NCBI GenBank assembly: GCA_017499595.2
Contig: CM039003.1
Coordinates: forward strand, 806,001 to 870,000
Direction: 5' to 3'
Length of the DNA: 64,000 nucleotides
DNA from: Psilocybe cubensis
Taxonomy: Eukaryota
The position numbers and the translations under genes are program-made. Shown piece after piece: positions 7,822 through 58,862 of the stretch. The stretch's first letter is position 1; the number at the start of each line of letters is the position of its first letter. Under the pieces are notes generated by a model. The model was not told the DNA's origin. It searched no databases and saw nothing but the letters and a program-made list of their open reading frames with translations.

Positions 7822-10800
7822 TCAAAGCTTAGCCTTGACCTTACGAAGCTCCTTTGCTTGATCGCGTAACACGCGACGAAGCAGCTTCCCGCTAGGCGAT
7901 GTTGGGATCGCCGACACAAACTCAACTCCCCCAACCAAATGCTTATAGTGAATCTTGTTTTGGGCAACGTGCTATGCAGAAAAACGCGTGTTCAAGGTAC
8001 GTGTCCAGCATCGAATCTTAGGCAGGAACTTACCTTGATAATTGACGCCTTGATTGCTTCAGCAGCAGCAGCGCTTTGGCTTGCCCGCTTTGACGCGTCT
8101 GCTGTGAGTACCACGTAAGCAAGGGGGACCTCCCCACCTATGTTCATACCTATCAGAATCGATGCAAATCAGGCATATTGAAATGTACACACTGTATTCA
8201 TCGGGAATGCCAACGACACAGGTGTTGGAGACGTCAGGGTGGTCAAGTAGGCAACCTTCCAGCTCCGCAGGTGCGACCTGGAATCCTTTTACCTTGACAT
8301 ATATGTTAGGTTTGCAGTCCCCATACCAATAACTAGCGAGCTAAAATTACCTTCATGATCTCCTAGCAAAACAGACATCAAGGATCCAAGCATTGAACAC
8401 AACGTAAACGGCCAGGTAGTCAATTGAGACACTAACCTTTAGCCTATCCAACACAATCATCTCCCCATCTTCCATAATCTTTACCTCATCCCCCGTTCTT
8501 ACCCATCTACAACGAGTTTAAATCGCGTCAATATAGATCCAATAGAGTTTGCTAATCTCGCCGCCAACGCGACCAATCTAGCAGGTTTACGATATAGCGG
8601 ATTAACTTACCCATCAAGAAATGTTTCTTTAGTCCTATAGATTAAAAATAAAGATGTGTTAACTCGAGCATAACAATCATAACACCGAGATAGATGCGAC
8701 CCAGGGTATATCCAAAGGGGGAGATAAATCATCATGAAGCAGAGGAAAAGGACGGTGTTTAAGGGGAGCAGCAAAGAAACGAGAAACTTACGCTTCAGCA
8801 TTATTTGCGTAGCCCAGCGCGACAGAAGGCGTCCATACGATCAGCTCCCCAGCCTCTCCATAGTCCGCCAACGTTCCATCCTGCTTAACGACGCGCGCTA
8901 CAATGCCAGGTAGCAGGTGTCCGCTACCTACAGCATTCCGAACATCAACACATTAGCTTTTTTCAAGACATAAACATAACAAGTAGTAAATATGCACGTA
9001 CTTCCGGACACACCTCGTTTTCGTGTAATAGGCCACATCGTAGTAGCAGTGCACGTTTCCGTCATTCCTGTATTGCAATGTTTAGATTATCAGAATTTGG
9101 TTCAAGATCACGTATAGACCCCCAAAACACAAAATACCGCAGACATACCATAAGCTTGACCAATATGCGCATCGGGGAACATGGAAAAGAGTTGTTGGTT
9201 CAGTTCATGCGAAAGCGGTGCAGCCCCACACATAATCATCCGGATGTGCTTTCGAAGATCATATTTCTTCGTCGCTGGATGCTACAACCAACTAGCGTCA
9301 ATTACCCCACTCCCCAAACCAAACGGCTCTCAACACCGCGTATCTACAAAAGGAAGGCTCACCTTGCACAGCAACACCACCTGCGGAGGCACAAGCCTAC
9401 ACAGAGAAATGATCGTCGACGTCGACTCGCAGTCAGCTAAAGATAGCCTATCTCGGAGTAGTGGTAGATCTTACAGGAGATGGCTAATCCGATGCCGAAC
9501 GATGCTATTCAGCATCTCTACGAAATTGAACTTCGGAATTACCACAAGAGACATCTAGATAGGGTGGTTGCGGGTAAAGGTTGTTGAGCATTACAGCAGC
9601 GCTCGCAACGCTATGTGACCAAAACGCATTGACTTACTCCACAGAACAAAATGTAGTGTAGCTAGAAATACCATCAATTAGCAAAAATAACGTTTTATTG
9701 GCGCCATTGCTCATGATTTGCTCTGACACAGAGGGGATAAAAGTAGACGCACATTAATGACAAGACCATATATATCTGAGAATGCAGTAATGAATGCTTA
9801 GCTCATGGCCGTAGAAAACGTCAAATCAAGCAAACTCACGATAGAAGGGCAACACTAGGCAAGAGTAAAAATATCCAAATGATCAATATAAAGACTTAGT
9901 ACTATATCACCGAGCCAGTGGCGTTGAAAGTTACAATACGCACCTCCTATCGCGACATCCCCAGGACGAAATCGTTGGTCATTCCAGTCGCAGTAATTTT
10001 GGTTCACCTTGTTGTGTGCTGCTATTTGAATGACATTCGCGATCAACGCGAAGTGAGGGATAGCGACAGCCTAGAATAACATACAAATTTCTCGGTCAAT
10101 GATCGCTTCAAATTGATTGATGATGCTGCAAGAATAAGATGAACAATTCACTGACCTTTGGTCGCCCAGTAGTGCCTGACGAAAAGCTCAGGAATGCCAA
10201 CTTGGTCTTCGCCTCGCCAGGAGCCAGCCGCCTCTCAACATACCCAACCTTATTCTTCATCCCAAACTCCACCAGGCTGCTGATTGTCTCGTGGCTGCTG
10301 CCCCGAAGCACCTCTCCGGAGGTAGTGTTATGACTTACGTCAAACAACACGACGCGCGCAGATGGGAGACCCGCCTCGCGTGCTGCGTCCAGTGCGATTG
10401 ACAACGACTCCGGGTGGACCATGATGACAGCGGCATTGGTCGCTTGCAATTGATACAGCAGCTCACTGCTCGTGTAATCTGGATTCGCGCCACTGGAAGG
10501 TAGACAAGATGGGAAGTAGGGTAGGTTCCATTTCAGCCCCCGCGTCCTGCCGCGGCGCACTAGATGGCGCGAAGAGAAGGGTAGGTTACTTACGATATGA
10601 CACCCCCGAGTCTGTGTACTGCCCAAATGGCGACAGGGTAGTCTGAGAATCATCACGTATCAGCGCCGGGAGAAGGATATGAAAGTTCTGTAGGAGTGGA
10701 TTCTGGAAAGCACGAGTATGTAGTACTTACCGACATGATTGCGGCTGAAGACGAGAACTTAACAAGGGAGAGCTTCCATGAGCAACATGAGGCATAGACG

Positions 10801-18983: not shown

Positions 18984-21254
18984 TCAAGTCAAATTTTCAT
19001 TCGTTATGCCATGCCAGAAATTACAGCGAGAAACCAGTGCGTCGTCAACTCGTTCCATCACAGAATTTTGTGGATTAAAGAGGATGCGTGAAAAGCTAGA
19101 ATCACTGTTGACGGGCTATATGACCAGTTCGATATTCAGTCATCTGGTGTCAGTGAGAATTGTACAGTACTAACCTGCCACTCTGGGCCAGATTTGGAAA
19201 CAGGCTTGCCCGTAGTTACGAATGATGTCAAATACTCTCGCATGATTTCAAAGAGTGCTAGATCATTATGGTCTGCATCTGTAGGGGGGTTAAAGAACGC
19301 CTGCAGCTCGTCCTCATGGTTGGAACCCAGGTGAGGATTATCGTAACTATGACGTGGGTCAGGGTCTGCAGGATCCTTAAATTCGCACAAAAGGCGTACT
19401 GGTATTGGTATGCAGAATCCCCGAAAGCCGGAACGGCAGGAGTTGCCATTAAAGCACTGCAAATATATCTAGCCTCACCATACATTTGCTGACCTTGCAG
19501 GCTAACATTACCACCGAAGTCGTTCAACGGATACAAAGAGAATCCGGTGTTGATGATACTTTCACTAGTCAGATTAGGATACTGTCCAATAAGGAAATTA
19601 AAGACAGTGGTTTCTGTTGCGTTTGCCAAAGATGTATTGGCCGCAGGATCCGGGATGGTGGAAGCCCAATGAGCACCTTCATTTGTATTCGAGCCTGAAA
19701 TGACGGGAATATGGGCGAACCGACCAGCTTGGTAGGCTTCGACTGGCCTTTCCTGAATCAGGGCATTATCGACAACTGGAGCAAAAAGAAATAAAGTATC
19801 CGGCCGGGCATCGAGTAGTTTGCTTCCGGCTTTTGCCACCGCAGTGCTGGTGAGTCCGCGAAGGCAGCTTAGTTGTCCTTTTTTGGCGGCGCTCGTTCCG
19901 CTTCCGCATCCTCTAGAATGAAGGTTAAAAATAAGAATATAAGAAGGTATATTTAACCCACGCAAGCTGTGCGAATTGCTGAAAGATATCTTCATCGTAG
20001 GCATCATTGAATGCAGGCGTGTAGACAAGAGGTGGACTGTCCATTATTGCCGCATGAAAGAGGCCTTCAGTATCTCCACCGTTTGCCATGAGCTGACGGA
20101 CAGGATCAACGACTGCAGTTACAGTGATATCTACATGAACTTACATGGTACATTATGGATCCTGCTCCTGCAGACTGACCCCACACTGTGACGTGGCTGG
20201 TATTAAATTAACATCAAGATGAAACTTATTGATCAGATTTTTTTAGATTTTGCGGGACGCTGCTTACCCGCTGTCCCCTCCAAATTGACCGATGTATCTT
20301 TGGACCCATTTCAGAGCAGCCCTCTTGTAACCATATTTAGTAACGTTATGTTTCCCTGAAGAGTGCATGCATCAGATGACATACCTGATCCAAGAGCCCA
20401 GCGTTTATTGACCCGTTGCTAGCAATTTCTGATCCTCCTGCAACGTATGACATTATCTTCTGGGGCAATTTATTTGGATATTAGTTGCTACAAACCCAAG
20501 AATCCAAATTGGCCGAGACGGTATTCAAAAGAAGCAAATACGAATGGTTGAGAACTTGATGCCATAAGTAAATCGGGAAGAAAGCTATGCGTGCTGCCAG
20601 ATTGGAATCCCCCACCTACATAGCTGACATGAGATCGACGATCATGGCATCAAAAGTAGGGACTGCTATACCATGGAACCATACTAGTACTGGAAGATTG
20701 TCGCCCACATGTGTATTGTTAGGCACAAAGATCTATCAGGCATTTGCTCAATTACGCTCTGGAGCATAGCGCAAAAATTCAGACTGACATTGCCGAAAAG
20801 GCAATCCTCAGATGTTTTAGTCGCCACAGTAGTTTGAGTCGTCCGAATGCATTCGGCGCCAAACTTGAAAACAGAAAATCAGGCCCATCCCAGAAAGCAT
20901 GATAAAGCATAACTTACCTTACTCGCATCCACAGTACCCAAATTCTTGGAAGGAGGAGAAATAGGGGCTGCCCATCGTAGATTTTTCGTCGGAGCGTCTG
21001 CAAACTTGACACCTCGGAATGAAATTATCCCATTCGTAGTATTCTGCTTTCCCTTGAATTTCCCGTCTACCAATGCCGATGAAAGATGGTTAGCGTCGAT
21101 GCCAATATATTAAGGAGCAAAAAAACATACAATCCAACGTCACTGTGGAGCCAATAAGAGCACCCATACTTCTTGTTGTGAGGTCGCATAGTACTAAACG
21201 TTGGAGAAAGAAGAGAAGCAGCAGCGACAGTATATAGTGCGTCCTGTCTGCCAT
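18984..21254 (-). CDS. Type-B carboxylesterase/lipase paralog 2, secreted, multi-exon
   Basis: Signal-like MADRTHYILSLLLLFFLQRLVLC, FRGVKFADAPTKNLRW, WGQSAGAGS, GSNTNEGAHW, SLQGQQMYGEARYIC (shared with paralog 1), NHEDEL. Stop at 18984-18986. Confidence 0.9.
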
Positions 21255-22394
21255 TGATCACCGTGAACAGCCTCAAAAGTGATGCAAAAGCAGGAGGCGA
21301 TACAATTTAGTTGGAAACTTGGGAGAAATGGAGGTGCGTGGAGATAAGGGCCCTATGTAAAATACATGGACTCTACTGCAGCCACAGGCAGCACGCAACT
21401 TCCCATGGTAAGAATTCTGAAATAGATACCCAAAAAAAGGTTGACAGTCTTTGTTCGCTCGGTTGGTTGTCGATATGCTTCATAGATATCAAGCTCTATA
21501 AAGACCCAGAATTTGTTGCGAGGAATACACAGCAAGATCTTTTTACTGTCGTTTTATATGAAATTTTAGGGAACTAAGGCCTCGACAACTTTCGGGAGTC
21601 TGCAAACTGGAGAACAACTCCACTGTGTTCTGACAATAGCGCAGGATAAAAACAGCCGGAACAAACATCCGAAATGCCTGTTGAAGGAGGGTAAAACCGT
21701 GGCATATCGGTGTAAAAGATAAGAAAAAGCAGTCTCAAGTCCCGTGGATTGTGTCAGGCTGGGTGCTAGAAGATAGGTTTGAAGAAGAGATTTCAAGTTG
21801 AAGTTGCAAGTCGTGCGAAATCGGACAAACACGCGATTACATGCGCCAGTCACATGCTTCTACGCGTCATTTAGACTTTCTTGGCCTTGCCTTGGCCTCG
21901 ATCGAATGCGAATGGTCTCCAGTGTCAATCATCCAGTCGAGCTAGATCTCAAGTAAAAGAGATAATCTCTCAGAGGAACTGGTAAGCCTTAGACATATAC
22001 AAAAAAATTTCCCGCTGTATTTTATGTGAGTTCTCCGACTTTGGCCCAAAAAAGGTGCGACAAGAGGCAGAAATATCTATTTTTGGAATGTCTAATATTA
22101 GGTCAAACCTCTAAAATTATGTCACTGGCAGTTGTTCTCTTTTGCCAAGCACCGATGGACACCTAGTAATTCGAAGATGGGAGGAACCACACCATGGCCT
22201 GACAGAGGAAAACGTTGATGAACTTCTATCTCGCCTACCTAGACAACTTACCGCGCACTCTGAGATAATGGCCACTGCAGTTATTGTGTGCTCGGAGCCT
22301 ATCTCGTGGATAATCCGTCGGATGCGCAGCTCCCACCTACAGCATATGATTGGATGTCCAGATAAAATTGCAGAAGCTATGGTCATGACTAACA

Positions 22395-22402
22395 TTGTAA
22401 CC
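22395..22402. repeat. Left 8-bp target-site duplication TTGTAACC
   Basis: Identical to 30681-30688. Confidence 0.85.
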
Positions 22403-22430
22403 GAGGACAGGTGGTTTGCGAAAAAAAATG

Positions 22431-22476
22431 GCGCGGACTGTCCGCCAGACTGTCCGCCGGACTGTCCGCCGGACTC
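22431..22476. repeat. Left subterminal array of 12-bp quasi-palindromic units (GGACTGTCCGCC)
   Basis: GCGCGGACTGTCCGCCAGACTGTCCGCCGGACTGTCCGCCGGACTC read directly from the sequence. Confidence 0.9.
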
Positions 22477-22808
22477 ATAGGCCTTTGGGTGGGCCTGTGT
22501 GACTTGGGTGAGTGACAGCCGTGCTCACTCTGCTCTACAGCGATCAGTGGCCTTCCCCGACACATTACCGCCCTCCGCCCCCCGCCCCCGACCTGGCCAT
22601 GAGAATGCTAAGTGCCACTGGTTAATATTTTAATGGCACCCCGCCTCTCCTGTATTTTTCCGCCTTTTCCACCAGTTACTCCTGCGGTGTGCTACTTCCA
22701 TAGACAAGGCCCGTTTAGGTAGTATTTATTGTAGCTGTTTTAGTAGACAATAGATGTAAAATGCTAATACAATTACATCGTTGAACAACTTCTAACCTTG
22801 CAACCATT

Positions 22809-25096
22809 ATGTCCTCTTCATCTAGTGCATATTCTTCATCTACTCTCCAATCAATCCTTCAAATCCAAGCTAGTATTGCCAAATATTTGGACTTTGAAGG
22901 ATGTTTGAAGTTCATTGAACTTATCCAACTCCTAAAGCCAACAATCTGTCTGTCACAACAACCAGGACTAGCAGAATCTGATGCGGGTGAAGACAAATGT
23001 CCAGCACGGTTGCGTCTGAACGTACACACTTTTCTCGCACAATCTTTAAGTGTCGATCATGAGGCTATGAAGATTATTTGGCGTGCAATGGCCAATATTG
23101 CGTGGAATTTTAGGGTTGATGAAAGCTGTGTTCATTCCTTTGGTCAACGTCATATTCAATGCTTTCTTGACTATGGAAGACAGAATGGCATAGGTGAGTT
23201 AGCATATATATCAAGCTAAAACCACTACTAATTCTAAAATCGGAGCCTTTTATCATCTAATGCCTCCTGTTCGTCATTGCCTTGATCCACGATGTGTTAT
23301 CAAGCCCAAGACTTCTAAAAAGGATGAGCTCCATCGACGTCCACTGAAAGAAGCACATAGCCGTTCTGTTACTGTTTTTACACAATCATTTGGACCCATC
23401 CCGGGTATTTCTACTTCAATGTTTTGTTCGGGTATGTGTTTAGTATTGTTATTTTGTTGAAACTCCCCCTTCTAACAATAATAAACGCAGGATGCCAAAC
23501 TCGATACTACCCTAACTACTGGGTAGATAGAGCACAATCCACTCGGACATTTTACCGTATACATCGCACCTTTCTGCATGTTACAGAAGGAATTTTTATG
23601 GACATTGCCACGTTGGAATTGTTTACGACAATGATGTTGACGTCTTGGTAGCTTCTTTCTTTTGTTGTGAATTTCTTCCATTAACTTGGAGTGTACAGGA
23701 CTTCTGCTTCAAATTGTGCCCGCATCTATAATGAAGCAATAGCTTCAAAGTCCCTGTCATCCTCTCTTCCTGCAGCATATTCCAAAAGCATGGTGCTAGA
23801 ACACAATGACGTATGGAATGGTCTTAGTCTCTTCTGGCTTCTTGAAGACTCGGAAGAAGAAGATGAGGTCTTACAAATTGACCATGTAGCGCCTAGTCAA
23901 GCCATCCGCCTCAGAAAAGCCTTAAAGAGACGGAACCTTCGGATGGCAGGGACTGGTCAGGAAGCTTGGAACCATGTATGTGATTTATGCTGCTGGTATA
24001 ATGATTTGCCCGATGGAACACAGAGTAAATTTTGAAAATTTATGATTCTAGTGATATATAACTCATGCTTGATTCTAGCTTTCCTTCGTTCTGTGGTTAC
24101 TGATGGCATAACTATTGGACGGCCTACCTGCTCTATTCATGACTGCGATATTCCTTTGGATTCCGTCAAACATCGGTTCTGCCCTACACATAAAGATCAG
24201 AACCTTATCTGTGCGGTTACTAGCTGCTCAGCTCCCATTGATGAGGGCTATCAAACGTGCAGTCTGAAGGATCACCGAGCTCTTGAAGCATACAACGATA
24301 TCCACAATAAAGCAATGTTTCAATTAAAACTTCGGCTTGCCCGTCTCAAAACCTCACAGCCCACTGATGCCTTTTCCACTGATGATGGCCAGTCAACCAT
24401 ATTTGGCGATGAAGAGGTTTTGATTGACGCCAATGGTGTCTGTGACGAGAAGTCAGAGAAGGGTAATCAAACATTGCGAGCTCGGTTTGGAAGGCGACGC
24501 ACTCATAATGAAGAGCTGTGTGTGGCATCGTGTGGTGTAATTCTTGGACGAGCAACATTCTATGGTTCAGAGGCCCCAAACGGAGTACGGGTGCGTCATT
24601 TTTCTTGCTTCTAGAGAATTGTTGCTTATTTAATTTTCAGACATTTTGGAAGACTTTGTTTCCTACCCAAAAGTCTCTTCCAGGAGTTCTTTGGCACGAC
24701 AATAACTGTCGAATTATGTTAATGCTTGAAAAGGAGAAAGACACGTACTTTTCCCACTCAGCATTACCCGTTGACGTATTCCATTTCAAGTGTAAACATA
24801 AAGCTCAAGACGACAAATGTAATGCCAATTGTAACCCAGCAAAATGGCCCGAGCTTATGACGCCTGATGGGAAGTGGCGTTTTAACTCATCTGCAGCAGA
24901 ACAAGCCAACGCTTGGCTAGGAGGGTATCAAGCCATTGTTCGTGAGATGCAGGCCGACAGATATGAATTCTTTTTGGACGAGTTAATCAAGAGGCGAAAT
25001 CGAAACATCATTAAGGATTTGGAGAAAAAAGGGAAAAATCCACATGAAATCCCAAGGGATTTTTTACTCAAGCCAGATACACCCAGAGTCGATTAG
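22809..25096 (+). CDS. KDZ-type transposase with CxC5 and CxC6 cysteine clusters (6 exons, apparently intact)
   Basis: CxC5-like PPVRHCLDPRC...SMFCSGCQTRYYPNYWV. CxC6-like CSIHDC...RFCPTH...CAVTSC...TCSLKDH. Core motifs VVTDG, RRRTHNE..CGVI, HDNNC, VDVFHFKCKH, FNSSAAEQANAW. Exons join in frame at GT-AG sites. Confidence 0.88.
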
Positions 25097-25921
25097 TGAT
25101 ATGTAGGAAGTTGTAATAAAGAGCATTAGAAATCATGTTGGAACCTACATTAGTTGTTGTGAACAAGCAGCAATCCGGGTTTAGTTGTTGCTCTGTGTCT
25201 TGAAAGCCTGCCGCTCGCACGATAACCCCGGCCCAGGGGTGATCCTTGGTGTTATCAAACAAGCGGCAGTTTTTCAAAACATGCATCCAGTATTGCCTCG
25301 CTACCCCACAACAATAAGCTGTAATAAGCTTTGCCACTGATGAAACTGAGAAACACATATGGGCACGGCGTCAACAAAGTGTGAAGTGTGAATGCCAGTT
25401 TATTGAAAGCTAGGGTGCTAACACTCGATCAATAACCAGACCCAGAACAAACGTGAATCAAAAACATTGAAACTGAAGGCAGGAAATCGCATTAACATGC
25501 CGAAAACTCACCGCGTCATATATCAACCCATGCTGATCCCACACCTTGACTTGACTCGCAGCACCTCCGCAACGCCCAACATCCTTCACACGCGCTGTTG
25601 TCACGCATGTCTACCACCTCATCCTCATCCTCCTTTCCTAAGTATTGATGCGCATACATGCTTCCGGGGTACATTGGCATTTCGTGTTCTACATCACTCT
25701 GGCACACTGAGGTCGAGTTGAGAAACGTTCGTCCGGTTGATGAGAGAGATGAGGTTGTGGGGTTGTGGGCAGCATTGTGGAGACAATATTGAACGGGAGT
25801 CGCAAAAGGGAAGAGACCGATTCTGAATACCACTTTTGAGTTGTACAGAGAACAGGATTGCGCTGAGCTCTGAGTCCGTCGGCGTCCGCGTGAGCGCACC
25901 CATGACATCTGCGAGCTCGTT

Positions 25922-26736
25922 AATAAGTAGCCGCTTCTCCCCAATCCACCGAGTAACTCTGTCAGCGTCTATTAATTCCAACAGCTCAGGATCATCCTTC
26001 ATTTGCTCGCGGGTCAGCATAATGCGATATGCAGCCTGTCCAGAATCCACCACATGATCCGTCGAACCAAGTTCCTTCAGCATTGCTGCTCGAGTGAGCG
26101 ACTTGATACCATCGGCGGCTAATATGATATCAGCCTCGACTCGCACGGCTGGACCTACTAATGGCGTAGCCAAGAACGATGGCTTCCTGTCATCCCCGCC
26201 AAAATTCACTTCAGATACGGCAGTCGAGAAGTGAAAGGTAATGGCAGATTGTGCTTTGCAGCCTTCGTAAAGGCTCCCAGCGAGCGAGGCACGGTGTCCT
26301 ACCATGTGAGCGTAGCCATATTTATCTTTGACGGAGTCGAACTCGACAAAGCCGAGCTCTTTGTCGGTTGTTCCCTCTGGGAAGATTTAAGCACATTGAT
26401 TTACTATGTCAAGAACTGATATTACTTACGTCTGATGCTCGTGCTCTTGACTAAGACAGCCTCGGACTCGATCTTTTTCCAAACGCCGAGTTTATCGAGA
26501 ATGCGTGCCATATTGGGGGCAAGTTGAATTCCTGCTCCTACAAAACCTAGGTTGGGCGCAGTTTCGTAGACATCGATATAGAGAAACCCTTCGTGTGCTA
26601 ACGAGAGGGCACAAGTGAGGCCACCCATGCCTTGATACTAGCTATGAGTTCATCATGTGAGTCAACTAACCGGAGGAAGGAGCTCACCTGCTCCAAAGAC
26701 CGCGACTCTCAACCGTCTGACGTCGTCGAAGGTCAT
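25922..26736 (-). pseudogene. 3'-truncated FAD-dependent monooxygenase (salicylate-hydroxylase-like) inside the transposon
   Basis: MTFDDVRRLRVAVFGAG|MGGL Rossmann motif, GAGIQLAPN, ADGIKS, GQAAYRI. Similarity ends at RWIGEKRLLI and no GD(A)xH motif follows. The frame runs on into unrelated sequence to a stop at 25694. Two introns are retained. Confidence 0.82.
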
Positions 26737-26745
26737 CGTTATCAG

Positions 26746-26913
26746 ACCTAGAGAAAGACACAAGACTCAGTGAACATGATGCATGAACGACTATGTTCCA
26801 ATCTACCTAGAGAAAGACACGAGACTAGATAATAGTGTAGTTAGTGACTAGGCGAGAGGATGCTAAAGGGAGAGTGGAAACTTTACCTCAGTGAACATGA
26901 TGCATGAACGACT
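26746..26913 (-). repeat. 47-bp duplication: intronless copy at 26746-26792; second copy at 26805-26824 + 26887-26913, split by a 62-nt GT-AG intron (26825-26886)
   Basis: Direct comparison shows one mismatch. On the minus strand the intron reads GTAAAG...CACTAAC...TATCTAG. Confidence 0.85.
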
Positions 26914-27431
26914 GAGGGAAAGAGGGCCGATGGATTTATTGAGACGGAAGCTATGAGCGCAATGAGCAGGTCATTCCTTGGGGAAGAGTGCTGTAGACAT
27001 ACCACAATTAAAAAACTCGCACTTGTTTCCGGCTACAAATACAAGCCAGAGCCCGTTGTCATCCAAAAAATTTCGATGGAGTGATTTGACGGACTTACAG
27101 CACGGATTTTGAGGTCGGGTCTTGCAGGGAGTCTTGACGTTGACGAGCGAGCTGTTCTACTCGCCTCTCAGTGACCGGGGGTTGTTGATGTGGTTTTGAG
27201 TATGTTGCCAGTGTATTTCCGTGCCCGAAAATTCCTGGTAACATACTCTCTGCCTCTTGGTTGGTGGAAACAGCGAACGGGTGTGTTGGGAGGTGTAAAC
27301 GATGGATGTGCACACGGTCATGTGACTACACGCGCCCTCACGACTTCGTCAATTTCTGGGTCGTCGGATTGGCATTAACTGTAAATTTGTTCAATTGTAA
27401 TATAAGTAATCGTTACAAAGTGCTACTGTAG

Positions 27432-30224
27432 CTACAGAGAATCAGGCTCTAAAGTCAAGTCAATGATTTCCCAGGTACCAAAAGCAATGCCAGGATGAGC
27501 AGAAACATCCTGCTTGATAGGTTTTTGGCCTGGAGAATCCACGGTCAGGTCAATAATATCACCGCTGATAACAGCACGCTCTTTTCCTTTTGCAGAGCCA
27601 GTGAGGGTAATACTATCACTCTTCTCTTCTTTTATAGTAGGAGTAGATATTGCTGCATCCTTGGTGATAGCATGCTTGTCTTGCAAAAGTTGCATTACTT
27701 CTAGCATAGAAATCCGAAGATCTTCTTGAATGAGAAGTGTCACTGTTTCAGGAAAAAGCACCTCTTCAATAACTGAATCATAGGTGAGAGGCTGTAGAAT
27801 TGACATATCTATGTCTTCTGAATCTTCAGGAAACATTTCTCTTAGCTCAGAAATAATAAGAGCTTGTATCTCTGGACCATAGCTTTGTAGAAGATACAAA
27901 TTAGTAAATCTAGCCATCTAAGAGCAGTATAAAATTACTTACTAGGCAATGCAATCTAAAAGAAGTTGATTCTTTGATTTATCCGGAGTTTGACTGCAGC
28001 TAGCTTCAAAGGTTTTTCTGGAATTACAGAAAAACATGCTTTCTTCAGGGTCCATAAGAACGTAACAAAGTAATTCTTTATCACCCTGGATTTGATGACG
28101 GAGACTGGATATCTTTTCTTTGGTCAATAATCCACCATTGACATTAGACTGAGCTATATGAGGCAAGGAAATATGGGAAAGAGGGCTGACACGAGCACTA
28201 GGACTGATGTTTTCTGAAGAACTTGAGTCATCCAAGCTGTCTGAAGAGGAGGACTCAGAAAAGGTATCTGGAATATCCTGGGGGTTTTTTAAGGCAGCCT
28301 GTAATGACCTATATGTTGCCTGTTTCGAGTTGCCCATGTCCACAAAATAGCCAACAATATCTTTGTCATATGTTTTCCAATAAGATTTGTGTTCATAAAA
28401 TGTGGATTTGTGAAAAGAAGCATCTGGAAAAGCAGCATAGAAAGCATCTTTGACACTTATACGAGATCTTGGACGAATAGATAATGCAGATTTCTTGGAT
28501 GACTTCATATAAGGGTTGCTTCTAGAGGTTTGAGATTTGGATAGTGTTTCTTGCATTTGAAGAAATCCATTGTGAATTTGATAGACCTTGAAATCAAACG
28601 GCCACTGCTTTGTAGAGTTATGAGATTTCTTTAGAACCTTTGGTGGTGGTGGTAAGTTATGAGATTTCTTTAGAACTTTTGGTGGTGGGGGTAAATCACT
28701 GTCTGATGAATTTGGGGTTCTATATCCATGTGGGCGCTTCTTCCTAGGAATATGGATATGATTTGATAAAATTGGACTAGCAGACCGATTTCTTGAGGTA
28801 GAATGTGTAATTGTTAGAGAAGATGCTTCCTGTATTGCAGATTGACGAATAGGCGACACTAATGTGGTGTGTTGTTGGGCTAACAAAGCTTGTGATGTCT
28901 TTGGTTGTAGTTTGAGCTCATCTTCAATTCCAGGACAGTGCTCTAATGTTTCTCTAAGGCTTGGACGGATTTTTAAAATCAGTCTTTGGCCCTTTTCAAC
29001 AGTAAGAACACTTTCCATGGTGAGAGTTACCCATTCTCCTTTCCAGTAATCCAGTTTGGTTGTTGGCTGAAGCTCCAAGTTTTTCATTAACTCAGCAGAG
29101 TCTGACAAGCGAAAATGGGGAAAGGATTGTATATAATATTCAAGCCTAATAGGAGGCTGTCCATTCTAGAAGAATATTATTAACTGCTTGAATATAAACA
29201 AGAATATGAACTCACAGTGTGATATACAACCAAAATACATGTTCTTTTTCGTTGTTCATCCATTTCATGTTGTTTAACTTTTAGAGATTTGAGGTTTCGG
29301 GTATGACTAAGTAATCCTGTTCGCTTTTGTGCCCATGTACCTCCTACAGGTTGAGCCAGGCCTCTTGGAATAACCTGTCCAAGTCCGAACTGAGTAGCAG
29401 GTGGTGTAGAAATAACCATATCCTGGTTTGGGGATTGATTTGGAGAGACCTGAGAAGCAGAAATATTGAAAGGGCTCGGTGGTGGTGAGATAGAAATGTT
29501 TTGGGTAACAGATTGGGTAGAAAGAGGAGGAAGAGGAGGAGAATGAACTTGAGAGATTCTTTCTGGAGAAGCAGGAGTTGAAATATCAGGAGCATAAGGT
29601 ACATTTTCGGGCTGGCGATGGGCATGACATGCCTTTCTAAAAGCTTGCTTAGAAATGGCATCTTTGCAAGCTTTGGTACAACAGGTCTTGCATTTATTTT
29701 CAATGCAAGTTCTACTCCCTTGAGTTCGGGTTCCTGACTTTGTAAAGCATGTAGAAACTGTGCAGAGTAGTTTATCTGATATTGGAATAGGAATAACACC
29801 AGTAGAGTTGGACTGAGCTCGTCTTTGTTGAGTCTGATTTGGCTGAGAAGAAGAATGATTGGCAGTGTTTGAAATGGAAATATAAGGTCTAAGAGTGCGA
29901 GGATAGCCCTGTGGATCATCAGGAAAATTAATTCGGTGCAAAAGACGTTGGGCATCCTCATATATATATGCAGGAGTATGATGATAGGTGTACAAACACC
30001 TATAATCAGAACACTAGACAATTAATTAGACTTGCACAATAAGCTAAGTTAATAACACATACAGTTTGACAGAGAGATCCTTTCAAATGCCTCTTGGAAG
30101 GAGATCCAGTAGCTTTGTATATAGCTATAGGTGGCATAGGTCTTCCACATGGGCGGTTGGATCTTCCTGGACAAAGACCAATAGGTGATATAGTAGGATC
30201 AGGAGGTAGGTTATCTGGGTTCAT
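27432..30224 (-). CDS. Transposon partner protein with Cys-rich N-terminal clusters and a C-terminal RTC4-like domain (4 exons)
   Basis: Exons join in frame (CQT|CSDYRC, VVYHT|NGQPP, CIAY|YGPE). Cys cluster CTVSTC...CIENKCKTCCTKAC...CHAH. Motif WPFDF...GF...STFYEHKSYW. C-terminal YYGP...PLTYDSVIEEVLFPETVTLLIQEDL resembles the RTC4 domain. Confidence 0.7.
28616..28693. repeat. 39-bp tandem duplication encoding LPPPPKVLKKSHN twice
   Basis: AGTTATGAGATTTCTTTAGAAC(C/T)TTTGGTGGTGG(T/G)GGTA occurs twice in tandem. Confidence 0.9.
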
Positions 30225-30618
30225 TGCTAAAACTATGCTCTAAAACTCAAGAACTTGTGCCAAATTTATAGATTTTCGGTTGTCATATTACATATATCTC
30301 CCTATAGAGAGCTACATAGTATGTCAATGCAGAGATTTCTAGCTTTGGCGCTACAAAGCGCGTCTAAACACGAGTGGCTGCGTTGGGCCAGCCACAATAT
30401 CCAAAAATGGAAAAGAAGCCGCAATAAGCCGGCCCAATTCTCACGTGTTTGGCAGTAGTGTCAAGTGGCAACAACAATGCGTGCGCCGTGTAGCGCATCA
30501 AGCGGCGGGGCATTGTTGGAAAGCATTGAGCTCGCTGCCTCGAACAGTGACCATGCAAGTGGGCCCCCGACGTGGCCCGGAGGTCACACTATGGTCACAA
30601 ATACCCACGATACACCCA

Positions 30619-30652
30619 GAGTCCGGCGGACTGTCCGCCAGACTGTCCGCGC
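30619..30652. repeat. Right subterminal array of quasi-palindromic units
   Basis: GAGTCCGGCGGACTGTCCGCCAGACTGTCCGCGC, ending 28 nt before the element end. Confidence 0.9.
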
Positions 30653-30680
30653 GAAAAAAACTCGTGGACGAACCTTTCTG

Positions 30681-30688
30681 TTGTAACC
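30681..30688. repeat. Right 8-bp target-site duplication TTGTAACC
   Basis: Identical to 22395-22402. Confidence 0.85.
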
Positions 30689-30819
30689 TTGTGCTGAGCT
30701 CCGAAACAGTGAAATGAGCCCATGTGATGACAACTGAATTACCATCTGCCAAAGGGGCCCCTATAGGCACTGACAAATCTCATACCACAAACGACTGACA
30801 CTTCATACTTATGCGACCA

Positions 30820-33666
30820 CTACAGCTTGGACTTGACCTTCCGGAGCTCCCTTGCTTGTTCACGCAAAACACGTCGAAGTAACTTTCCGCTCGGGGTGGT
30901 CGGAATGCTTGAGACAAATTCCACGCCGCCTGCCAAATGCTTATATTGTGTTTTGTGGGTTTTGACGTGCTGGACGAGACATATGATTAGACGAAAAGAA
31001 CCTTGTTGCGTTTCGGACGGACATTCTTACCTTAATGATAGATGCCTTGATTTCATCTGCAGCTGTCTTGCTCATTTTCGCTCTATTCGCGGCGTCTACT
31101 GTCAACGTAACAAATGCAAGTGGAATCTCTCCGCCTCATCATTATGGTCAGAATTATTATTAACACGCATGAACAAATTGCTCACTGTAATCATCTGGAA
31201 CCCCAACAACGCAGGTACCAGACACGTCGGGATGATCCAAAATACATCCTTCGAGTTCCGCTGGAGCAACCTGAAATCCTTTCACCTGATTGACATGGAT
31301 GTCAGGATCTATCCGCCCGGCATTTAATATTACATACCTTCAAAAACTCCTGATAGTTAACATAGTCAGTGTGAATTTCGTCCCAACCAAGGAAAATCAC
31401 ACCTTCAACCGATCAATCACCATCATCTCTCCGTCTTCTCCGATTTTTACCAAATCACCTGTCCTTACCCAACTGAAATGCAAAAGACTATTCAGATTCA
31501 TTTTATTGCCGTACGGAAAATTGTATATACCCATCGACAAACGTTTCTTTTGTTCTGGGAAAAAGAATAGAGAAAGTCAAAGTCGACGCCAACAATGACA
31601 ACGGAGTGCTCACGCTTCATGGTTGTTTAGGTACCCCAATGCAACTGAAGGAGTTTTTATGACCAATTCACCAGCTTCGTCGAAACCGGCCAAAGACCCA
31701 TCGCTTTTGACTACCCGGGCCACCATTCCAGGGATAAGTTGACCACTGCCTAGGTTTACACAATTTAGCCCATTACGTGACAGGTAAGTATTGTGAGCCT
31801 TACTTCCAGCGACTCCTCTTTTCTGCGTGGTGGGCCACAAAGTGGTGATTGTTGCGGTTTCGGTCGTTCCTTCATATGGTGTTCCAATAGTTTGAGGATT
31901 AAGCATACACAGTCACGTACCATGTCCTTGACCGATTTGGGCATCAGGGAACATTTCGAAGAGTCGTTGATTCAGCTCATGAGAGAGGGGAGCTGCTCCG
32001 CACATTATCACTCGAATATACCTGCGAAGGTTGTAATCCTTGACGGCAGGATGCTGAAAGATATAATCCAACGTTCAGTATCGACATATGCTTCAAAAAC
32101 CTTATGGATACCTTGCATAATAAGACCACTTGAGGAGGTACAAGCCTATAGAAAGGTTATCAAATTTTTCAAAGAAAGCTAGAAAGAAAATACATAAGGT
32201 GAGTAATTCGATGGCGCTCGATGCTTTTGAGGAACTCGATGAAGTTAAATGTCGGAAACACGACCAAAGACATCTGGTTGATTCGTTCGTTTCTCTGTCA
32301 CAATAAATGAAGTTGAAATCTCGAATTTGACATACCCCAAAAAACAATGTATAATGAAGCTGCAATGATCACACCCATTAACGAGCTGAACAAGACCTAA
32401 AGGGAACAAAATTACGTTCATGGCAAGGCCATACATATCTGTAGTATAGTGTTAGTTTACATACAAGGCATCAAGGTCTCTGTAAGATTTCACATACGAT
32501 AAAACGGGAGTACTGGTAGTAGTGTGAGTCATCTACGCCTTCAACACTTAGGAAATTAAACTAACCTGCACTAGCCACATCTCCAGGTCTGTATCGTTGG
32601 TCCTTCCAATCACAATAATTTTGATTGAGTTTATTATGAGCAGCCACCTGGATAGTATTCGCAATTATTGAATAATGAGGTATAGCTACGGCCTAAAGTT
32701 TCAAAGCTCAGTCATAAACCGTCTATTTTCAGAGTATTAACTCCACCTTTGGGCGGCCTGTTGTACCGGATGAAAAAGAGAGAAATGCAAGTTTGGTTTT
32801 GGCTTCTCCAGGAGCAAAGGTTCGTTCCGTGAATGCGAGGTTACTTCTTAAACCCAGTTCAACAAGGCTATCGACTGTTTCGTGACCCTCGGAGGGCTTT
32901 TCAGTGCCATCATTCGCACTGAACAAGATTATTCGGTCTGAAGGCAACCCGGCTTGCTTTGCAACCTCGAGTGCAACATCCAGGGAGTCGGGATGAACAA
33001 TCATGAGAGATGCCTTTGTTTCATGAAATTGATACAGCAATTCGCTGCTCAGGAAATCAGGATTTGCTCCTCTACAAAAGTCGGATTTTAGAGCCGTTAG
33101 AGGTAGATGATTAGCTGTGGGACGTACGATATAATCCCTCCAAGCTTCAGTACCGCCCAAATCGCAACAGGATAATCTAAATATACCAACGTAAGATGTT
33201 AGCTCAGGGGAAAAGGATGTACATACCCATCTGATTACGACAGTATAAAAGAACTGTGGAACGAACGCATCGTTGTCATGTATAATAGTCAACTACAGAT
33301 GATAGGGATTAACCCACCAACTTCGTCTTCTCCTGCTCTTCGTTTTAATTAAAAATTTCACAGATACCAATGGCGTAGACAACACACCTAGACCAAACCT
33401 GGATTTCAACCCACGCGCAAGTGAATCCGTTCTAAACCGCAACTGACGCACGAAAGGGGTCAAACAAATAGGTAGACATAGACCTAGTATTGTTATCCTA
33501 CCTCCCCTTCCGTGAAAGTCTTCCCAGTTTTATCGTGAATTAGCCAAGGAACACCATTTCGTCTGCCCGGACGCATTGGATGATTAGTCTCAAACATAAA
33601 TTGAGGGATCGTGACATCGTCAGGAATGTAGGGCAGTTCTATTCCTTCAATTGGATACCGTTCCAT
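30820..33666 (-). CDS. 4-coumarate:CoA-ligase-like AMP-binding enzyme 3, PTS1 (SKL)
   Basis: LPYIPDDVTIPQF, FLSFSSGTTGRPK, WVRTGDLV, VKGFQVAPAELE, IPTTPSGKLLRRVLR, C-terminus ...KVKSKL* (TAG 30820-30822). Confidence 0.9.
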
Positions 33667-35354
33667 GGTTGGTTGCCAGTGTAATGAGCTCGGAAACACG
33701 AATGAGATGCGATGAATTCCGTTGAACCTGAGCGTTTGTAATATATAGCAGATTTTGCGAAATTAGCGACTGATTACCTACAGTAGTACTCCGATATCAT
33801 GCCACGGCAGTGGAGTCGTTATGCCCGTCTTACGCTACATTAGGATATAGCCGATACATATGTGCGACACTCCGAGATACTTCGATGACTAATGCCGTCG
33901 AAGTCATTCGCGTCGATGTGTTCATACAAGAATTCAAGCAGGGTTACAGTGCGAAGTTTGAACAATTAGAACGCTTCATAGAAGCGAGAAACCACTGATT
34001 GGCAGGAAGCGTCTGCGCGACTTGGGCTATGAAGCAGCGTACAAGGTTAAGGGGAAGGTTCGAGCTCGAATGACAATTGCAACTTTGCAAGCTGTATTCG
34101 TTGCTTTCGCCTTGCACTTTCCTATATTGGTATCTCTTCTTCCGAATATTGCAACACAGTTTCAAATTTGGGATGTGCCGGTTACAAGTAACCTCCATTG
34201 CAAAACCAGGTTAACGGAGAGGAGGATGATGACGATGGTCGTAACGACCCGAGTTCAATAAATCTGCAGTGCAGATGCCATTAAATACGACGGCGAAGTC
34301 GGTGGTATAGGTGATCAGCCTATAAAGCTTACAGCGCAGATAGCCTATGAAGAGGTTTGTTAGAGAAACCAGCTCGATTTGTGTAATTCAAAGGAGGATT
34401 TCTACTGGTGATTTGGTCGCTGACCCGGTGCCACCGATTTCGCTTGGTAGAATAGACAGAGGGTAGAATTAAGTCCTTGATATACTAGCTCAAAAAAAAA
34501 ACCGTAGATAGATCGTATATTTCTACATCGTTTCTATATCCACTTTACTCTAAACATGATGAATAGAAGGTGGTAATAATGCGGTAACGGATTCTCACCT
34601 TATCAAATGCGATATAATCCTCTATGGGTTTTGCTTTGTCGGATATTGTGTTGGGATAATACCTGGTAAACGGTGGCGCATTGTACATCTAGCAGAAACA
34701 CACACAATGGATCAGAGCACGCACCATGCGACGTCCTTGAAAACCTTCCCTTCGATCACAGCGTTGTAGTAAGAGGCCGTCCTGGTGATTCGCAATTTGT
34801 CAAGATGATTCGCAGGATTGCCTCACGAAGAAGCCACATACCCTTTCCATGGACATACCGTAGTCGTATCTGAAGGGGTGAGAATCGTTTTCCTCACAAA
34901 TGCACGTGGAAAGTAGTGATTCCCTTCTATAAGGATAGTTTCATTTGATTCCGCAAGGAGACGGCCATAAAGTGATACGCGAATCATGGTTTAATTCGTT
35001 TAAAGTGATAGTCGTGATGAGAGTTGCGAGCAATGTGCGAATAATCCTCCATCGACATGTTTCAGAGAAAAGTCTTACCGATTTGACTAATGATTATTGA
35101 GGTAGGATCGAAACAGATAAAAATGGAAAGGCACCCTCTGGCCTCGTGATCGAAGTAGAATCGCGCCGGTGATTGGGTTTCGAGATCGTTCATAAATCTG
35201 TTGGAATATGGTGTTAAATGTGCAAAATAGGCGTTATTTGATACGACCCGAGAAATCGTATAAAACTGCCGGAGAATATAACAAAGTCCAACTCAACTTA
35301 TGTTCACGGTAAAGCTATTAAAACACATACCATAAAAACCATTGGTGATATCAC

Positions 35355-53500: not shown

Positions 53501-53834
53501 GGTGAATGTACTTTCAAAAAGATAATATTTAATTGTTTAGTTTGACTCATCCTCCTTATAGAATCAGACATAGAAAAACATCCCACAATAAGGTTAATTT
53601 CTGCCCACCTGGCTTATCCTTCATGGCTAAAACCAACCTTGGGTCGCTACTTGTTTTCACCCGCTGGCATTGCCTTTAACTTATTCTTTTCTGGCTAGGG
53701 CACGGACAAGGGGCACTAAGGCGCTTATGTTCAAATGTGAACAATTGAAATCGGATTTCTTTCTCTCAAGACTTAAGCGGATAACGAGCCACACGTTTCC
53801 CCAGACTATCTACAAGGACTACATTTACTCTACT

Positions 53835-56800: not shown

Positions 56801-56963
56801 TTGCATTGCTAATGACCTCAAGATGTGCGTCAAAGAAACAGGATATCCTCTCTACTTGATCCTAAGAATAGACCAAGTAAGGATGAAGTTTGTTTAATGT
56901 GGAGTACTTTACCGGAAGAGCCACGCCAAAACTTTGCCCCTGTGAAGCGTTTTGATCGACCAT
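53835..56963 (-). pseudogene. BZZ1: BZZ1-like F-BAR + C1 + tandem SH3 gene with in-frame stop codons
   Basis: F-BAR (LEREFASKLQVLARK), C1 (HSFKSS.FSIPTSCTYCK..IWGLSKQGKICRTCRVSVHAKC), SH3 motifs (GSGWVKV...GLVPASYI and GKKGIFPSNYV). Stops at 54824-54826, 54015-54017 and 54012-54014. A splice donor reads ATATGT at 54007. Confidence 0.85.
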
Positions 56964-58862
56964 TTGATTTCTATTGATGTTAATAGATTCAAATTGTGTA
57001 CAGTGTTCCGAAGCTTAAAGTTCTGGGGTTGTTGAAGTTGAGAATGTCGATGATGGCGTCCAGGATCGTTGTTAGTCCTTTAGAGAATCCGGTGTTGCTA
57101 CATATTTGCATCATGTGATCACATTAGGGGTTAATTAGATTTAGAGTCTAGACTGACGTCACGCGTTCGCCGCACCGTCATTACTAGACTCCAGCTAAAC
57201 GGTCATCTACCAGTCGATGGTCCTCTAAGGTCAATAGATAATGTTTTTAGCTCAGTGATAGTTGTCAAGTATTTTGGTATTGAAAAATAAATGGAAATGA
57301 TATCACAGACATGAATACTGTCATTATGTGCAAGCTCTATGCATCCAAGATGTTATTTGTCGTGGCAATATGATTCGTGAGATACTATGTCATTCATATA
57401 GCAGTGTGTTCTATAACACACAAGTTGACACAAATAGCATAGCATCCATGCTAACTCTATCCAGATCATGGATATAGCCGCTTGCAGTTCTTTGTGCTCG
57501 CTGTCAACTTATTTTGGAAGTTCAATTAAAACCTATGGTCTGAGGCATGACATTGCATCCGCATTTTCCTGAAAATAATTTATGGTGCGCTAAGTGTACA
57601 AATTTTACCAGCTGTGCATGTCATTCCATCTTCAGTATGGGGTCGCCTTCCAGGTGTTCCAGAATGAATAATTCTTTCGATTTAGAAAGCAACGAGAAAT
57701 ATTGCTGAGTATTAAAAGAAGTTTCTCCAAGCGAGTATTCAACGTACAAGGTCACCTTGGAAGTCGGATGCTCAGCCATCTGACAAGTACGTTCAAAAGA
57801 AAAGACATGCCTCAAAAGAACAATGCAAATTACAGGTAGATGAGGTTAGCACGTTCTGATTGTCAAGTTCCGAATTGGGAAGACTCATACCACGAATTTA
57901 AATTTTCCACACGGTCTCATCGTGAGGAAAAACCACGACTAGATCCACCTGTCGCGCACCTTGGTCAATCAATCACGCGTCCATACCTCATGCTTTGTGC
58001 GAGGCCGCCGACCCAGCAGCAAAGGTATGAAGACAGATTGAAATCAGTTTATAAAACAGAACATACCCACGCATCAGCGGGCTTTCTAGGCAGAAAAGAG
58101 GGTACTCCGACATTCGTCTGGACTCTTGAGTCCAGAACTGGATGAATTTAGCATGGAAAACCAACCGGAGCTGCATTTGCCAGTGAGTGGATAATCCGGA
58201 GAACATTCCAAGCTTACATATTCTTGAAAGGAGGATTTTTTTGGGGATCAAAATTTTCCTGTCGGTGCATCGTGTGGAAGGGGAGGCATTCCACAGGGTG
58301 AGTTCTTGTTTCCATTTTCGTGCAATTTTATCCTCCGGCAAATGCCGCGATTAGATTCCATGATTATCTATTCTGGAGCCTCTCACCTCTTCGTTCCCAT
58401 CGCTTCTCGAGTGGTAACACCGCAGGTCGTCAACAAAGTCTACATAACCATGTTCTCGACAATCACCACAAGATCCTATTGGCTATAGATGGACGCCAAG
58501 CGTCTATCATTCTCAAGTTTGGTAAATTTTGAGGTCCGGAGTTCGTGTTTGAGGGTTACAAAACTATTCTTGCCATTTTACTGCCTCCTGCCTACTTTGC
58601 GCGTTGCGTTACGACCTCTTTCGGGACTAATGCCTGTCGACCAATAAGATCTGCAGGCGGCGCTCCCCAGTTTCATTAATCCGAGGTGTGCTGTCTGTGC
58701 CTTGCGGTTATTTGAGTGCACAGCTCCGAGCACGATGCTTTGCGTAATACAAGCTTTCTTGCGGATATAAAAGGGATACAGATTTTGGCTTTGAAGAATC
58801 TGTCTGTCGAGTGTCCTACCTGCTACATTTGCAACCTCTCAGAATCCCGTCGATCCAACATC

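Follow-up and report, generated by a model that had tools for sequence, protein, structure and literature searches.

An RTC4-like gene accompanies a CxC5/CxC6 gene in a mobile two-gene element of Psilocybe cubensis

Two-gene DNA transposons of plants and animals can encode an accessory DNA-binding protein, as is the case for TnpA of En/Spm (CACTA) and for the Myb-like ORF1 of PIF/Harbinger. The CxC clusters, for their part, are reportedly a name given by Iyer et al. (PNAS, 2014). Here we describe a transposon in a stretch of 64,000 nucleotides (nt) of the Psilocybe cubensis genome (GenBank assembly GCA_017499595.2, contig CM039003.1, positions 806,001 to 870,000 of the forward strand), in which a CxC5/CxC6 gene, probably coding for a transposase, is accompanied by a gene with an RTC4-like domain; the whole stretch is called the window, and all positions refer to it. 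The closest described systems are known to the following extent from the accessible parts of four sources. Accessory TET/JBP genes occur in KDZ, Plavaka and EnSpm elements, where an anti-silencing role was proposed, and the accessible text of that study mentions no CxC clusters (0 occurrences; Kojima 2025, PMC12730594). The Cryptococcus elements KDZ1-3 are active and make an 8-bp target-site duplication (TSD) (bioRxiv 10.1101/2025.05.19.654958). In sporeless Pleurotus ostreatus, a 6,792-bp mobile CxC5/CxC6 'insert' disrupted MSH4, and 44 to ~60 CxC5/CxC6 regions were counted per Pleurotus genome (PMC7641404). Puccinia novopanici has 45 'RTC4 proteins', left unexplained in the accessible part of the report (PMC9370660). 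Our literature search found no work linking the RTC4 domain to mobile elements and none giving it a mechanism, an earlier description in Iyer et al. 2014 or in Repbase being possible, and a search for Zisupton elements with a second open reading frame (ORF) returned nothing relevant among the matches listed.

Briefly, we are highly confident that the RTC4-like gene is part of the element and needed by it. It is also reasonably likely that we are dealing with an active cut-and-paste CxC5/CxC6 transposon whose obligatory second gene this is, and that the encoded protein acts as a non-catalytic nuclear cofactor. The outline of the element is as follows.

22403..30680, no strand: whole transposon, 8,278 bp (empty-site joint, contig ends, loose ends, depth)
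22395..22402, no strand: left TSD copy, 8 bp, TTGTAACC (sequence; empty-site joint)
30681..30688, no strand: right TSD copy, 8 bp, TTGTAACC (sequence; empty-site joint)
22809..25096, plus strand: CxC5/CxC6 gene, 673 amino acids (aa), protein P0274, presumed KDZ-type transposase (tblastn in four pieces; Pfam)
27432..30224, minus strand: RTC4-like accessory gene, four exons, 877 aa (gene model, protein match, Pfam)

The element ends and the copy number were taken from public Psilocybe reads, for which four public runs of three studies (one as raw reads and three as Logan contigs) were aligned to 19000-34000. An empty-site joint, 22394->30681, with 8 letters fitting both sides, was found in 4/4 runs, supported by 17 reads in run X14 and by one contig each in runs X9, X10 and X5. 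Because the joint shares these 8 letters and TTGTAACC stands perfectly on both sides, the element is delimited to 22403-30680 with an 8-bp TSD. The flanks in X5 form one contig across the empty site at a depth of 21.7 (flank range 21.3-21.7), and the element contigs of the same run stop exactly at 22403 and 30680 and show no differences. The depth there reaches 79.2 over the RTC4-like gene and 69.7 over the partner gene, about three-fold over the flanks. Furthermore, 180 reads in X14 run off the left end (22402/22403) and 187 off the right end (30680), and their low agreement of 0.44-0.54 points to several different insertion sites. The assembled genomic copies give a similar picture: the 673-aa CxC5/CxC6 protein is found identical under three accessions on three contigs, with a fourth copy differing by 1 residue, and the RTC4-like copies P0001 and P0002 have 1 residue different, besides 78 gap positions reflecting gene models. 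The locus tags of the two genes pair as 0003995/0003997 and 0011944/0011942, with equal spacing and one gene between. Collectively, the element is multi-copy and insertion-polymorphic. Two further joints in the public reads, 22454->30483 and 22582->30655, are joined by 4-6 filler bases and look like short, internally deleted, non-autonomous derivatives reduced to the ends, similar to miniature inverted-repeat transposable elements, or like repair products.

An earlier note on this DNA had described, at the right end, an intact four-exon gene of roughly 870 aa starting about 450 bp inside the element, and the gene model agrees with it throughout. The exons on the minus strand (30224-30063, 30013-29216, 29165-27943 and 27882-27432, stop included) are separated by introns of 49, 50 and 60 nt with GT..AG in all three, the third of which carries a TACTAAT branch-point-like box. 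The spliced product has 877 aa and no internal stops, and its ATG at 30224 lies 456 bp inside the right end (30680). A public protein of Psilocybe cubensis annotated as hypothetical (P0001, 877 aa) matches with 100% identity over the exon-3 query. The motifs named in the note were each found in the order and place given there: WPxDF at aa 508, STFY at 574, YYGP at 728, VLFPE at 769, LLIQED at 777 and IIDLT at aa 837 and aa 867. Since YYGP is present only across the third splice junction, the exon model proposed in the note is right.

Relatives of both proteins were used to examine how far the pairing of the two genes extends. An exhaustive phmmer search with P0001 gave 342 cluster representatives at E up to 0.001, 175 of them at 1e-10 or better; a full-length word-indexed search gave 3 matches, its candidates being crowded by low-complexity words, and P0054 was rejected as a low-complexity false relative. 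From named Agaricomycete genomes, 20 representatives were compared with the 120 best CxC5/CxC6 proteins, and 15/20 share, judging from organism and contig size, a contig with a CxC5/CxC6 gene. Five of the shared contigs measure only 6.7-18 kb (two from Gymnopilus dilepis and one each from Arthromyces matolae, Agrocybe pediades and Gloeophyllum trabeum), and locus tags are one or two apart in CVT26_004185/004187, CVT26_000266/000268 and H0H93_016899/016900. In Flammula alnicola, 2/3 near-identical copies share contigs with CxC5/CxC6 copies, one pair having consecutive accession numbers. The representatives without a match (5/20) come from Pholiota molesta, Galerina marginata, Panaeolus cyanescens, Phanerochaete sordida and a 3.6-kb Arthromyces contig.

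The metagenome contigs of the Joint Genome Institute (JGI) allowed the neighborhood itself to be read. Scanning them with the CxC5/CxC6 alignment gave 228 pattern matches, of which 109 were confirmed and 80 loci kept, and these 80 loci were then searched by tblastn with 35 RTC4-like proteins at E up to 1e-5. An RTC4-like match was found in 47/80 loci, in 47/47 of them downstream of the CxC5/CxC6 gene and on the opposite strand, so that the convergent arrangement noticed in the window is the one in which the homologs lie throughout. The proportion follows the length of downstream DNA.

At least 3 kb downstream: RTC4-like match in 22/24 loci
At least 2 kb downstream: RTC4-like match in 34/39 loci
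At least 1 kb downstream: RTC4-like match in 40/50 loci
Less than 500 bp downstream: RTC4-like match in 1/18 loci

Of the five misses with at least 2 kb, two (loci L061 and L076) have long convergent ORFs in which hhalign recognizes the beta-grasp and WPxDF regions of the family profile (probability 94%, E 2e-7), and a third, L077, nearly duplicates L076. The other two, L037 and L060, come from a clade with a 1.5-2.5-kb spacer and may be too short. Together with the element context, this recurrent convergent pairing supports a dedicated accessory protein of a two-gene transposon. The two-component transposon proposed in the earlier note is thus borne out by a TSD-flanked multi-copy element and a recurrent pair, which contradict single-copy host genes unlinked to such elements. 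The roles suggested in the same note, in targeting, chromatin or anti-silencing, are candidates.

The two proteins also diverge together. Between the protein distance matrices of 17 gene pairs the Mantel r is 0.57, a value reached by 0/5000 permutations, and the nearest neighbors agree for 8/17 pairs; for example, the second Gymnopilus lineage goes with the second Lyophyllum lineage for both genes. The mean p-distance is 0.71 for the RTC4-like protein vs 0.48 for the partner. The longest exon of the RTC4-like gene has a Nei-Gojobori ratio of nonsynonymous to synonymous substitution rates (dN/dS) of 0.21-0.28 at dS 0.5-1.35, with 0.53 for one very close pair; because of the low ratio of 0.21-0.28, we conclude that the gene is kept by selection acting on the element. 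The RTC4-like gene is therefore located within the mobile unit, co-diverges with its partner, is always convergent to it and is under purifying selection.

These results bear on the possibility of a gene without a role for the element, either carried along as passive cargo or being a normal host gene in the vicinity of transposons. RTC4-domain genes exist as host genes in yeasts, and the element does carry cargo, which lies between its two genes:

25694..26736, minus strand: 5' fragment of a FAD-dependent monooxygenase gene (weak Pfam NAD_binding_8, FAD_binding_3)

The fragment spans about 300 codons, with a start codon and an N-terminus of the GxG type; its C-terminal half is missing, and it looks like a captured host gene fragment. 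It was found in 0/80 related metagenome loci and is for this reason regarded as cargo of the Psilocybe element lineage. The RTC4-like gene, in contrast to this fragment, recurs with its partner; its linkage, orientation, co-divergence and purifying selection contradict a passive passenger, and its depth equals that of the partner (79.2 vs 69.7; flanks 21.7). We consider passive cargo extremely improbable.

The partner gene starts at 22809, 406 bp inside the left end. Pfam recognizes CxC5 (105.5 bits) and CxC6 (92 bits) in P0274, and both clusters are present in 34/34 relatives. The C-terminal 200 residues are the most conserved part of the protein and hold invariant or nearly invariant D360, E496, E516, D542, D567, H570, H575 and E609. 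Among the named ESM-Atlas clusters, those closest to aa 340-673 all belong to KDZ transposases (score 0.88, with 170/256 features shared), which serves as a lead only. Two KDZ-type features, the N-terminal CxC-type clusters and the 8-bp TSD, are present in the element. From these sequence features the CxC5/CxC6 protein is probably a transposase of KDZ type, and its family probably represents a divergent branch within the KDZ superfamily.

The opposite division of labor would make the RTC4-like protein the catalytic partner, as a nuclease or strand-transfer subunit, and leave only DNA recognition to the CxC5/CxC6 protein. It could appeal to the Pfam catalytic domains, found in 0/34 CxC5/CxC6 relatives at E up to 1, to an invariant E773 and a nearly invariant D782 in the RTC4 core, and to the unknown function of RTC4. 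It is at odds with the conservation of the partner's C-terminal 200 residues with their invariant or nearly invariant acidic and His residues, with the KDZ identity of all of the partner's nearest named ESM-Atlas clusters (0.88; a lead only) and with an 8-bp TSD that fits KDZ elements (PMC12730594; bioRxiv 10.1101/2025.05.19.654958; accessible parts). Moreover, the RTC4 region is a plain helical bundle in the AlphaFold2 model and is unmatched in the most distant convergent genes. A catalytic RTC4-like protein is accordingly given very little credence, and a non-catalytic cofactor is preferred.

The architecture of the RTC4-like protein was modeled with AlphaFold2 from a 35-row alignment (mean predicted local distance difference test (pLDDT) 69.6, predicted TM-score 0.32). 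Five confident blocks (aa 10-95, 135-195, 280-410, 505-620 and 670-805) are separated by disordered Pro/Ser-rich linkers. The protein has 19 cysteines, and its modules are placed as follows.

29996..30173, minus strand: N-terminal zinc-type module (C18, C26, C55, C60), block aa 10-95, intron 1 inside the range (AlphaFold2, conservation)
29618..29764, minus strand: second Cys cluster (C138, C143, C157, C162, C165, C166, C183, H186) (AlphaFold2, conservation)
28941..29257, minus strand: beta-grasp (ubiquitin/DIX/PB1-like) module, aa 307-395, intron 2 inside the range (AlphaFold2, weak fold matches)
28266..28613, minus strand: helical WPxDF...TT..W domain, aa 505-620, carrying WPFDF and STFY (AlphaFold2, pLDDT >90 over most)
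27678..28043, minus strand: RTC4-like domain, aa 695-796, intron 3 inside the range (Pfam PF14474)

The N-terminal module is modeled with pLDDT 88-95 over aa 11-80, and its C18, C26, C55 and C60 are conserved in 20-24 of the 21-25 relatives covering them. The second cluster reaches pLDDT 93-97, with its residues conserved in 25-30 of 28-31 covering relatives. Look-alikes of the N-terminal 200 residues in the ESM-Atlas had a TM-score of at most 0.28 and were uninformative. A long helix of 30 residues (aa 280-311) precedes the beta-grasp module, for which the Foldseek and VIA-align searches with the whole 877-aa model returned beta-grasp domains only (DIX, PB1, ubiquitin, SUMO), all covering aa 307-395; the alignment to the Dvl2 DIX domain has Z 6.6-6.9. 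For this module the fold class is likely, and no more than the class. In the most distant convergent genes, it is the beta-grasp and WPxDF regions that remain recognizable. A 39-nt tandem duplication (95% identical) at 28616-28693, inside the gene, encodes LPPPPKVLKKSHN twice and sits in the disordered linker beside a basic KKRP stretch.

The RTC4 domain suspected in the earlier note is recognized by the Pfam profile PF14474 with 28.6 bits against a gathering cut-off of 23.7 (E 1.7e-6, aa 695-796, profile positions 5-111 of 121), and exon 4 by itself scores 23.9 bits. Among 35 aligned full-length relatives, 33/35 match RTC4 and nothing else in Pfam; no Myb/SANT-like domain was found, RTC4 being the only Pfam domain in P0001-P0005 (E up to 0.1) and in the 35 relatives (E up to 0.01). 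In the core, Y728 and E773 are present in 35/35 relatives, and Y729, G730, P759, L760, L770, P772, I779 and D782 in 32-34 of 35. The conserved pattern YYG..G ... PL ... L.PE ... LI..D is followed by P0001, in which position 733 is Ile vs Gly in 32/35 relatives. The region was modeled as a plain helical bundle, and the best VIA-align rows for aa 672-807 in the whole-model search have only Z 5.1-5.2. Just before the core, a CPFCD...C.RH motif is found in P0004, in P0005 and in the consensus of the 35 relatives. Profile searches against sequences of the PDB gave no match for either the RTC4-like or the CxC5/CxC6 family, and hhalign found no similarity between the two proteins (probability 0.15). 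No transposon-domain fusions were seen in 15 long family members, of which 14/15 have RTC4 and 7 have it in two stretches.

SUMO-interaction motifs (SIMs) of the PIAS type follow the pattern [VI][VI]DLT and then acidic or Ser residues. Two motifs resembling them lie near the C-terminus of the RTC4-like protein.

27543..27557, minus strand: first IIDLT (SIM-like) motif, aa 837-841, in the disordered tail (sequence, AlphaFold2)
27453..27467, minus strand: second IIDLT (SIM-like) motif, aa 867-871, 6 residues from the C-terminus (sequence)

Their contexts are IIDLTVDS at aa 837 and IIDLTLEPDS at aa 867, and both fall in the last 70 residues, which are disordered in the model (pLDDT <50 over aa 805-872). 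Within their last 40 aa, 24/50 full-length relatives have the pattern [VILP][VIL]D[LIV][TS] vs 0/120 CxC5/CxC6 controls, and shuffled tails contain it in 0.46 of 50. Many relatives without the strict motif end in another aliphatic run followed by acidic residues. Judged from its sequence, the chance that the tail binds SUMO is about even.

The gene is also unusual in its composition. The CpG observed/expected ratio, which the earlier note had judged low by eye, was measured as 0.29 for the RTC4-like gene (31 CpG in 2793 bp) vs 0.87 for the window. Elsewhere in the element the ratio is higher (partner gene 0.70, spacer 0.91, the two ends 0.75 and 1.01), so that the depletion within the Psilocybe element is confined to the RTC4-like gene body and ends at the gene borders. 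Because the genomic copies are nearly identical, the depletion predates the latest transposition burst. As a trait of the family it was rejected (median 0.70 vs 0.76 for the partner, lower in 19/26 loci, p = 0.16). In the metagenome loci L050 and L058 both element genes are nearly CpG-free (0.17/0.23 and 0.08/0.07), the pattern expected of dead copies that were long methylated or mutated in the manner of repeat-induced point mutation.

A relation to methylation is one of the grounds on which the RTC4-like protein could be seen as an anti-silencing or host-interference factor that counters SUMO-dependent heterochromatin or DNA-methylation silencing and is dispensable for cut-and-paste. The gene-body CpG ratio of 0.29 vs 0.70 in the partner suggests such a particular relation; however, the depletion is not a family trait. 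The faster change of the RTC4-like protein (p-distance 0.71 vs 0.48) is as expected in host conflict, yet at the level of the whole exon dN/dS (0.21-0.28) shows no trace of an arms race. The SIM-like tail conserved in the family would suit this role, and so would the parallel with the TET/JBP accessory genes of fungal DNA transposons, for which anti-silencing was proposed; those genes, on the other hand, are present only in some lineages of each superfamily (PMC12730594, accessible part). The near-universal presence and fixed convergent position of the RTC4-like gene fit a core component better than optional cargo, and for this reason a core role is favored over anti-silencing, which is the main alternative and which we regard as unlikely.

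For a core role, the two ends of the element offer candidate binding sites. Each end has an imperfect inverted repeat of about 30 nt followed by two to four tandem 12-mers, similar to GGACTGTCCGCC, which contain a CGG-N5-CCG palindrome and start 28 nt from either end.

22431..22476, no strand: left subterminal tandem 12-mers, GGACTGTCCGCC-like, starting 28 nt from the end
30620..30652, no strand: right subterminal 12-mers, ending 28 nt from the element end

With up to 2 mismatches, 11 such 12-mers occur in the window vs 2.9 expected, and 8/11 lie in the two ends. The termini of the metagenome loci L017, L028 and L029 align with those of the window element; 12-mers bracket both genes in L017 and L028 and lie outside the one preserved end in L029. 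In the proposed mechanism, the two conserved zinc-type modules would bind DNA, with the tandem CGG-N5-CCG 12-mers at both ends as the best candidate targets. The long helix and the beta-grasp module might mediate self-association and bring the ends or the transposase together, and the RTC4 domain and the [VI]IDLT-acidic tail could dock the protein on SUMO-modified host chromatin or break-repair proteins. A cofactor that binds the ends or serves in assembly, comparable to En/Spm TnpA or Harbinger ORF1, is conceivable at somewhat less than even chances.

Several points weigh against this interpretation. No Pfam catalytic or transposase domain, that of KDZ (PF18758) included, was found in the 34 CxC5/CxC6 relatives at E up to 1. 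We have inferred which element protein does the chemistry, and likewise the DNA binding, self-association, SUMO binding and partner contact of the RTC4-like protein. The CxC5/CxC6 clusters of the partner are equally good candidates for binding the 12-mers. The beta-grasp matches are weak, at Foldseek E >= 0.014 and a best VIA-align Z of 7.1 (rmsd 3.2, 79 aligned), and the whole-model fold searches barely tested the zinc modules and the WPxDF and RTC4 domains. The strict tail motif is missing from 26/50 full-length relatives, and a looser SIM definition was dropped as non-specific, as it was met in 33/50 tails vs 43/120 control tails and 17% of random internal windows. P0001 and the Flammula relative P0003 lack the CPFCD...C.RH motif that most relatives have; this absence is a lineage loss and no bar to family membership. 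Regarding the pairing, the record names were not the basis for the contig sharing in named genomes, 4/15 shared contigs are 0.48-4.7 Mb long, and the metagenome counts are not all independent because some loci are near-duplicates from related samples.

Regarding the other parts of the element, the spacer (25400-27230) differs among copies or strains, with joints 26369->27230 and 26792->26883 and loose ends at 25384, 26881, 26917-26926 and 27151; the depth reaches 128 in X5 and, in the mixed sample X10, is very high over a 230-bp piece (26924-27151). In the metagenome, the Psilocybe/Flammula-like clade (L017, L028, L029) has a spacer of 1.5-2.5 kb, and in L003, L013, L054, L016 and others the two genes end only 100-400 bp from each other, and the elements are compact, with a size of about 6 kb. 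No Rfam families were found in 22000-31000. Ordinary host genes flank the element: one codes for a carboxylesterase, the other, represented by its 3' end, for an AMP-binding enzyme. This pair occurs twice in the window, at 5034-5806/10111-10659 and at 19261-21100/30820-33292, with 74% nucleotide identity between 30824-30956 and 7826-7958; the two pairs go back to an old segmental duplication, the second of them being split by the insertion of the element. Farther away, positions 52001-58000 have a GC content of 0.41, CpG of 0.51-0.79 and no Pfam matches on their two long ORFs, and may be another degraded repeat.

The widespread but poorly understood 'CxC5/CxC6 regions' hereby become a defined two-gene cut-and-paste transposon with exact ends, TSD, candidate 12-mers and evidence of current activity in Psilocybe cubensis. 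For the RTC4 domain, a conserved protein encoded by a transposon and equipped with a SIM-like tail is the first clear biological setting, and the function of the domain becomes testable by a transposition assay. The short list of accessory proteins of eukaryotic DNA transposons is extended, beta-grasp modules and putative SUMO docking being new to it. For annotation, such genes need no longer count as host 'restriction of telomere capping' genes. Pleurotus has dozens of copies, one of which is behind a commercial sporeless mutation (PMC7641404, accessible part). A wider and distinctly speculative reading, which we hold to be rather improbable, is that the entire class of RTC4-domain proteins consists of transposon cofactors or of descendants domesticated from them, and that the CxC5/CxC6 elements use the RTC4-like protein to couple their ends to the SUMO-dependent break-repair or chromatin machinery of the host. 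If so, the RTC4 expansions of rusts (45 proteins in Puccinia novopanici; PMC9370660, accessible part) would reflect the same DNA-end activity as yeast Rtc4, a suppressor of telomere uncapping.

With the RTC4-like gene, a known class of element gains an accessory gene of a new type. Like fungal KDZ elements, the Psilocybe element has a partner protein with N-terminal CxC-type clusters, a large size (8.3 kb) with a second gene and a basidiomycete host, and it shares the 8-bp TSD of Zisupton, Dileera and Cryptococcus KDZ1-3 (PMC12730594; bioRxiv 10.1101/2025.05.19.654958; accessible parts). It differs from them in that PF18758 is unmatched (0/34), in that the clusters are CxC5/CxC6 and not CxC1, CxC2 or CxC3, and in that the ends are an imperfect inverted repeat of about 30 nt with 12-mers and not terminal inverted repeats of 139-241 bp. 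Compared with the KDZ elements that carry TET/JBP genes, the accessory gene is RTC4-like and does not code for a dioxygenase of that type. The Pleurotus insert resembles our element as a multi-copy mobile block of several kb, with a CxC5/CxC6 ORF of about 660-740 aa, that acts as an insertion mutagen in Agaricales; unlike here, its authors gave, in the accessible part of the report, no TSD, ends or second gene and proposed cooperation with a Copia retrotransposon (PMC7641404).

At the level of the protein, TnpA and Harbinger ORF1 provide a working analogy: a second element-encoded and presumably non-catalytic protein, with subterminal 12-mers at both ends as candidate sites. The RTC4-like protein is nevertheless unrelated to them in sequence and domains, with Pfam RTC4 only and without Myb/SANT. 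Its tail is like the PIAS-type SIMs in having an identical core (IIDLT/VIDLT) followed by D/E/S in a disordered tail, and differs in being known as a sequence pattern alone. With Saccharomyces cerevisiae Rtc4 and PF14474 it shares a C-terminal helical domain above the gathering score, as do 33/35 relatives. In contrast to yeast Rtc4, it is an 877-aa protein with two zinc-type modules, a beta-grasp module and a WPxDF domain outside Pfam, and it is transposon-borne and multi-copy.

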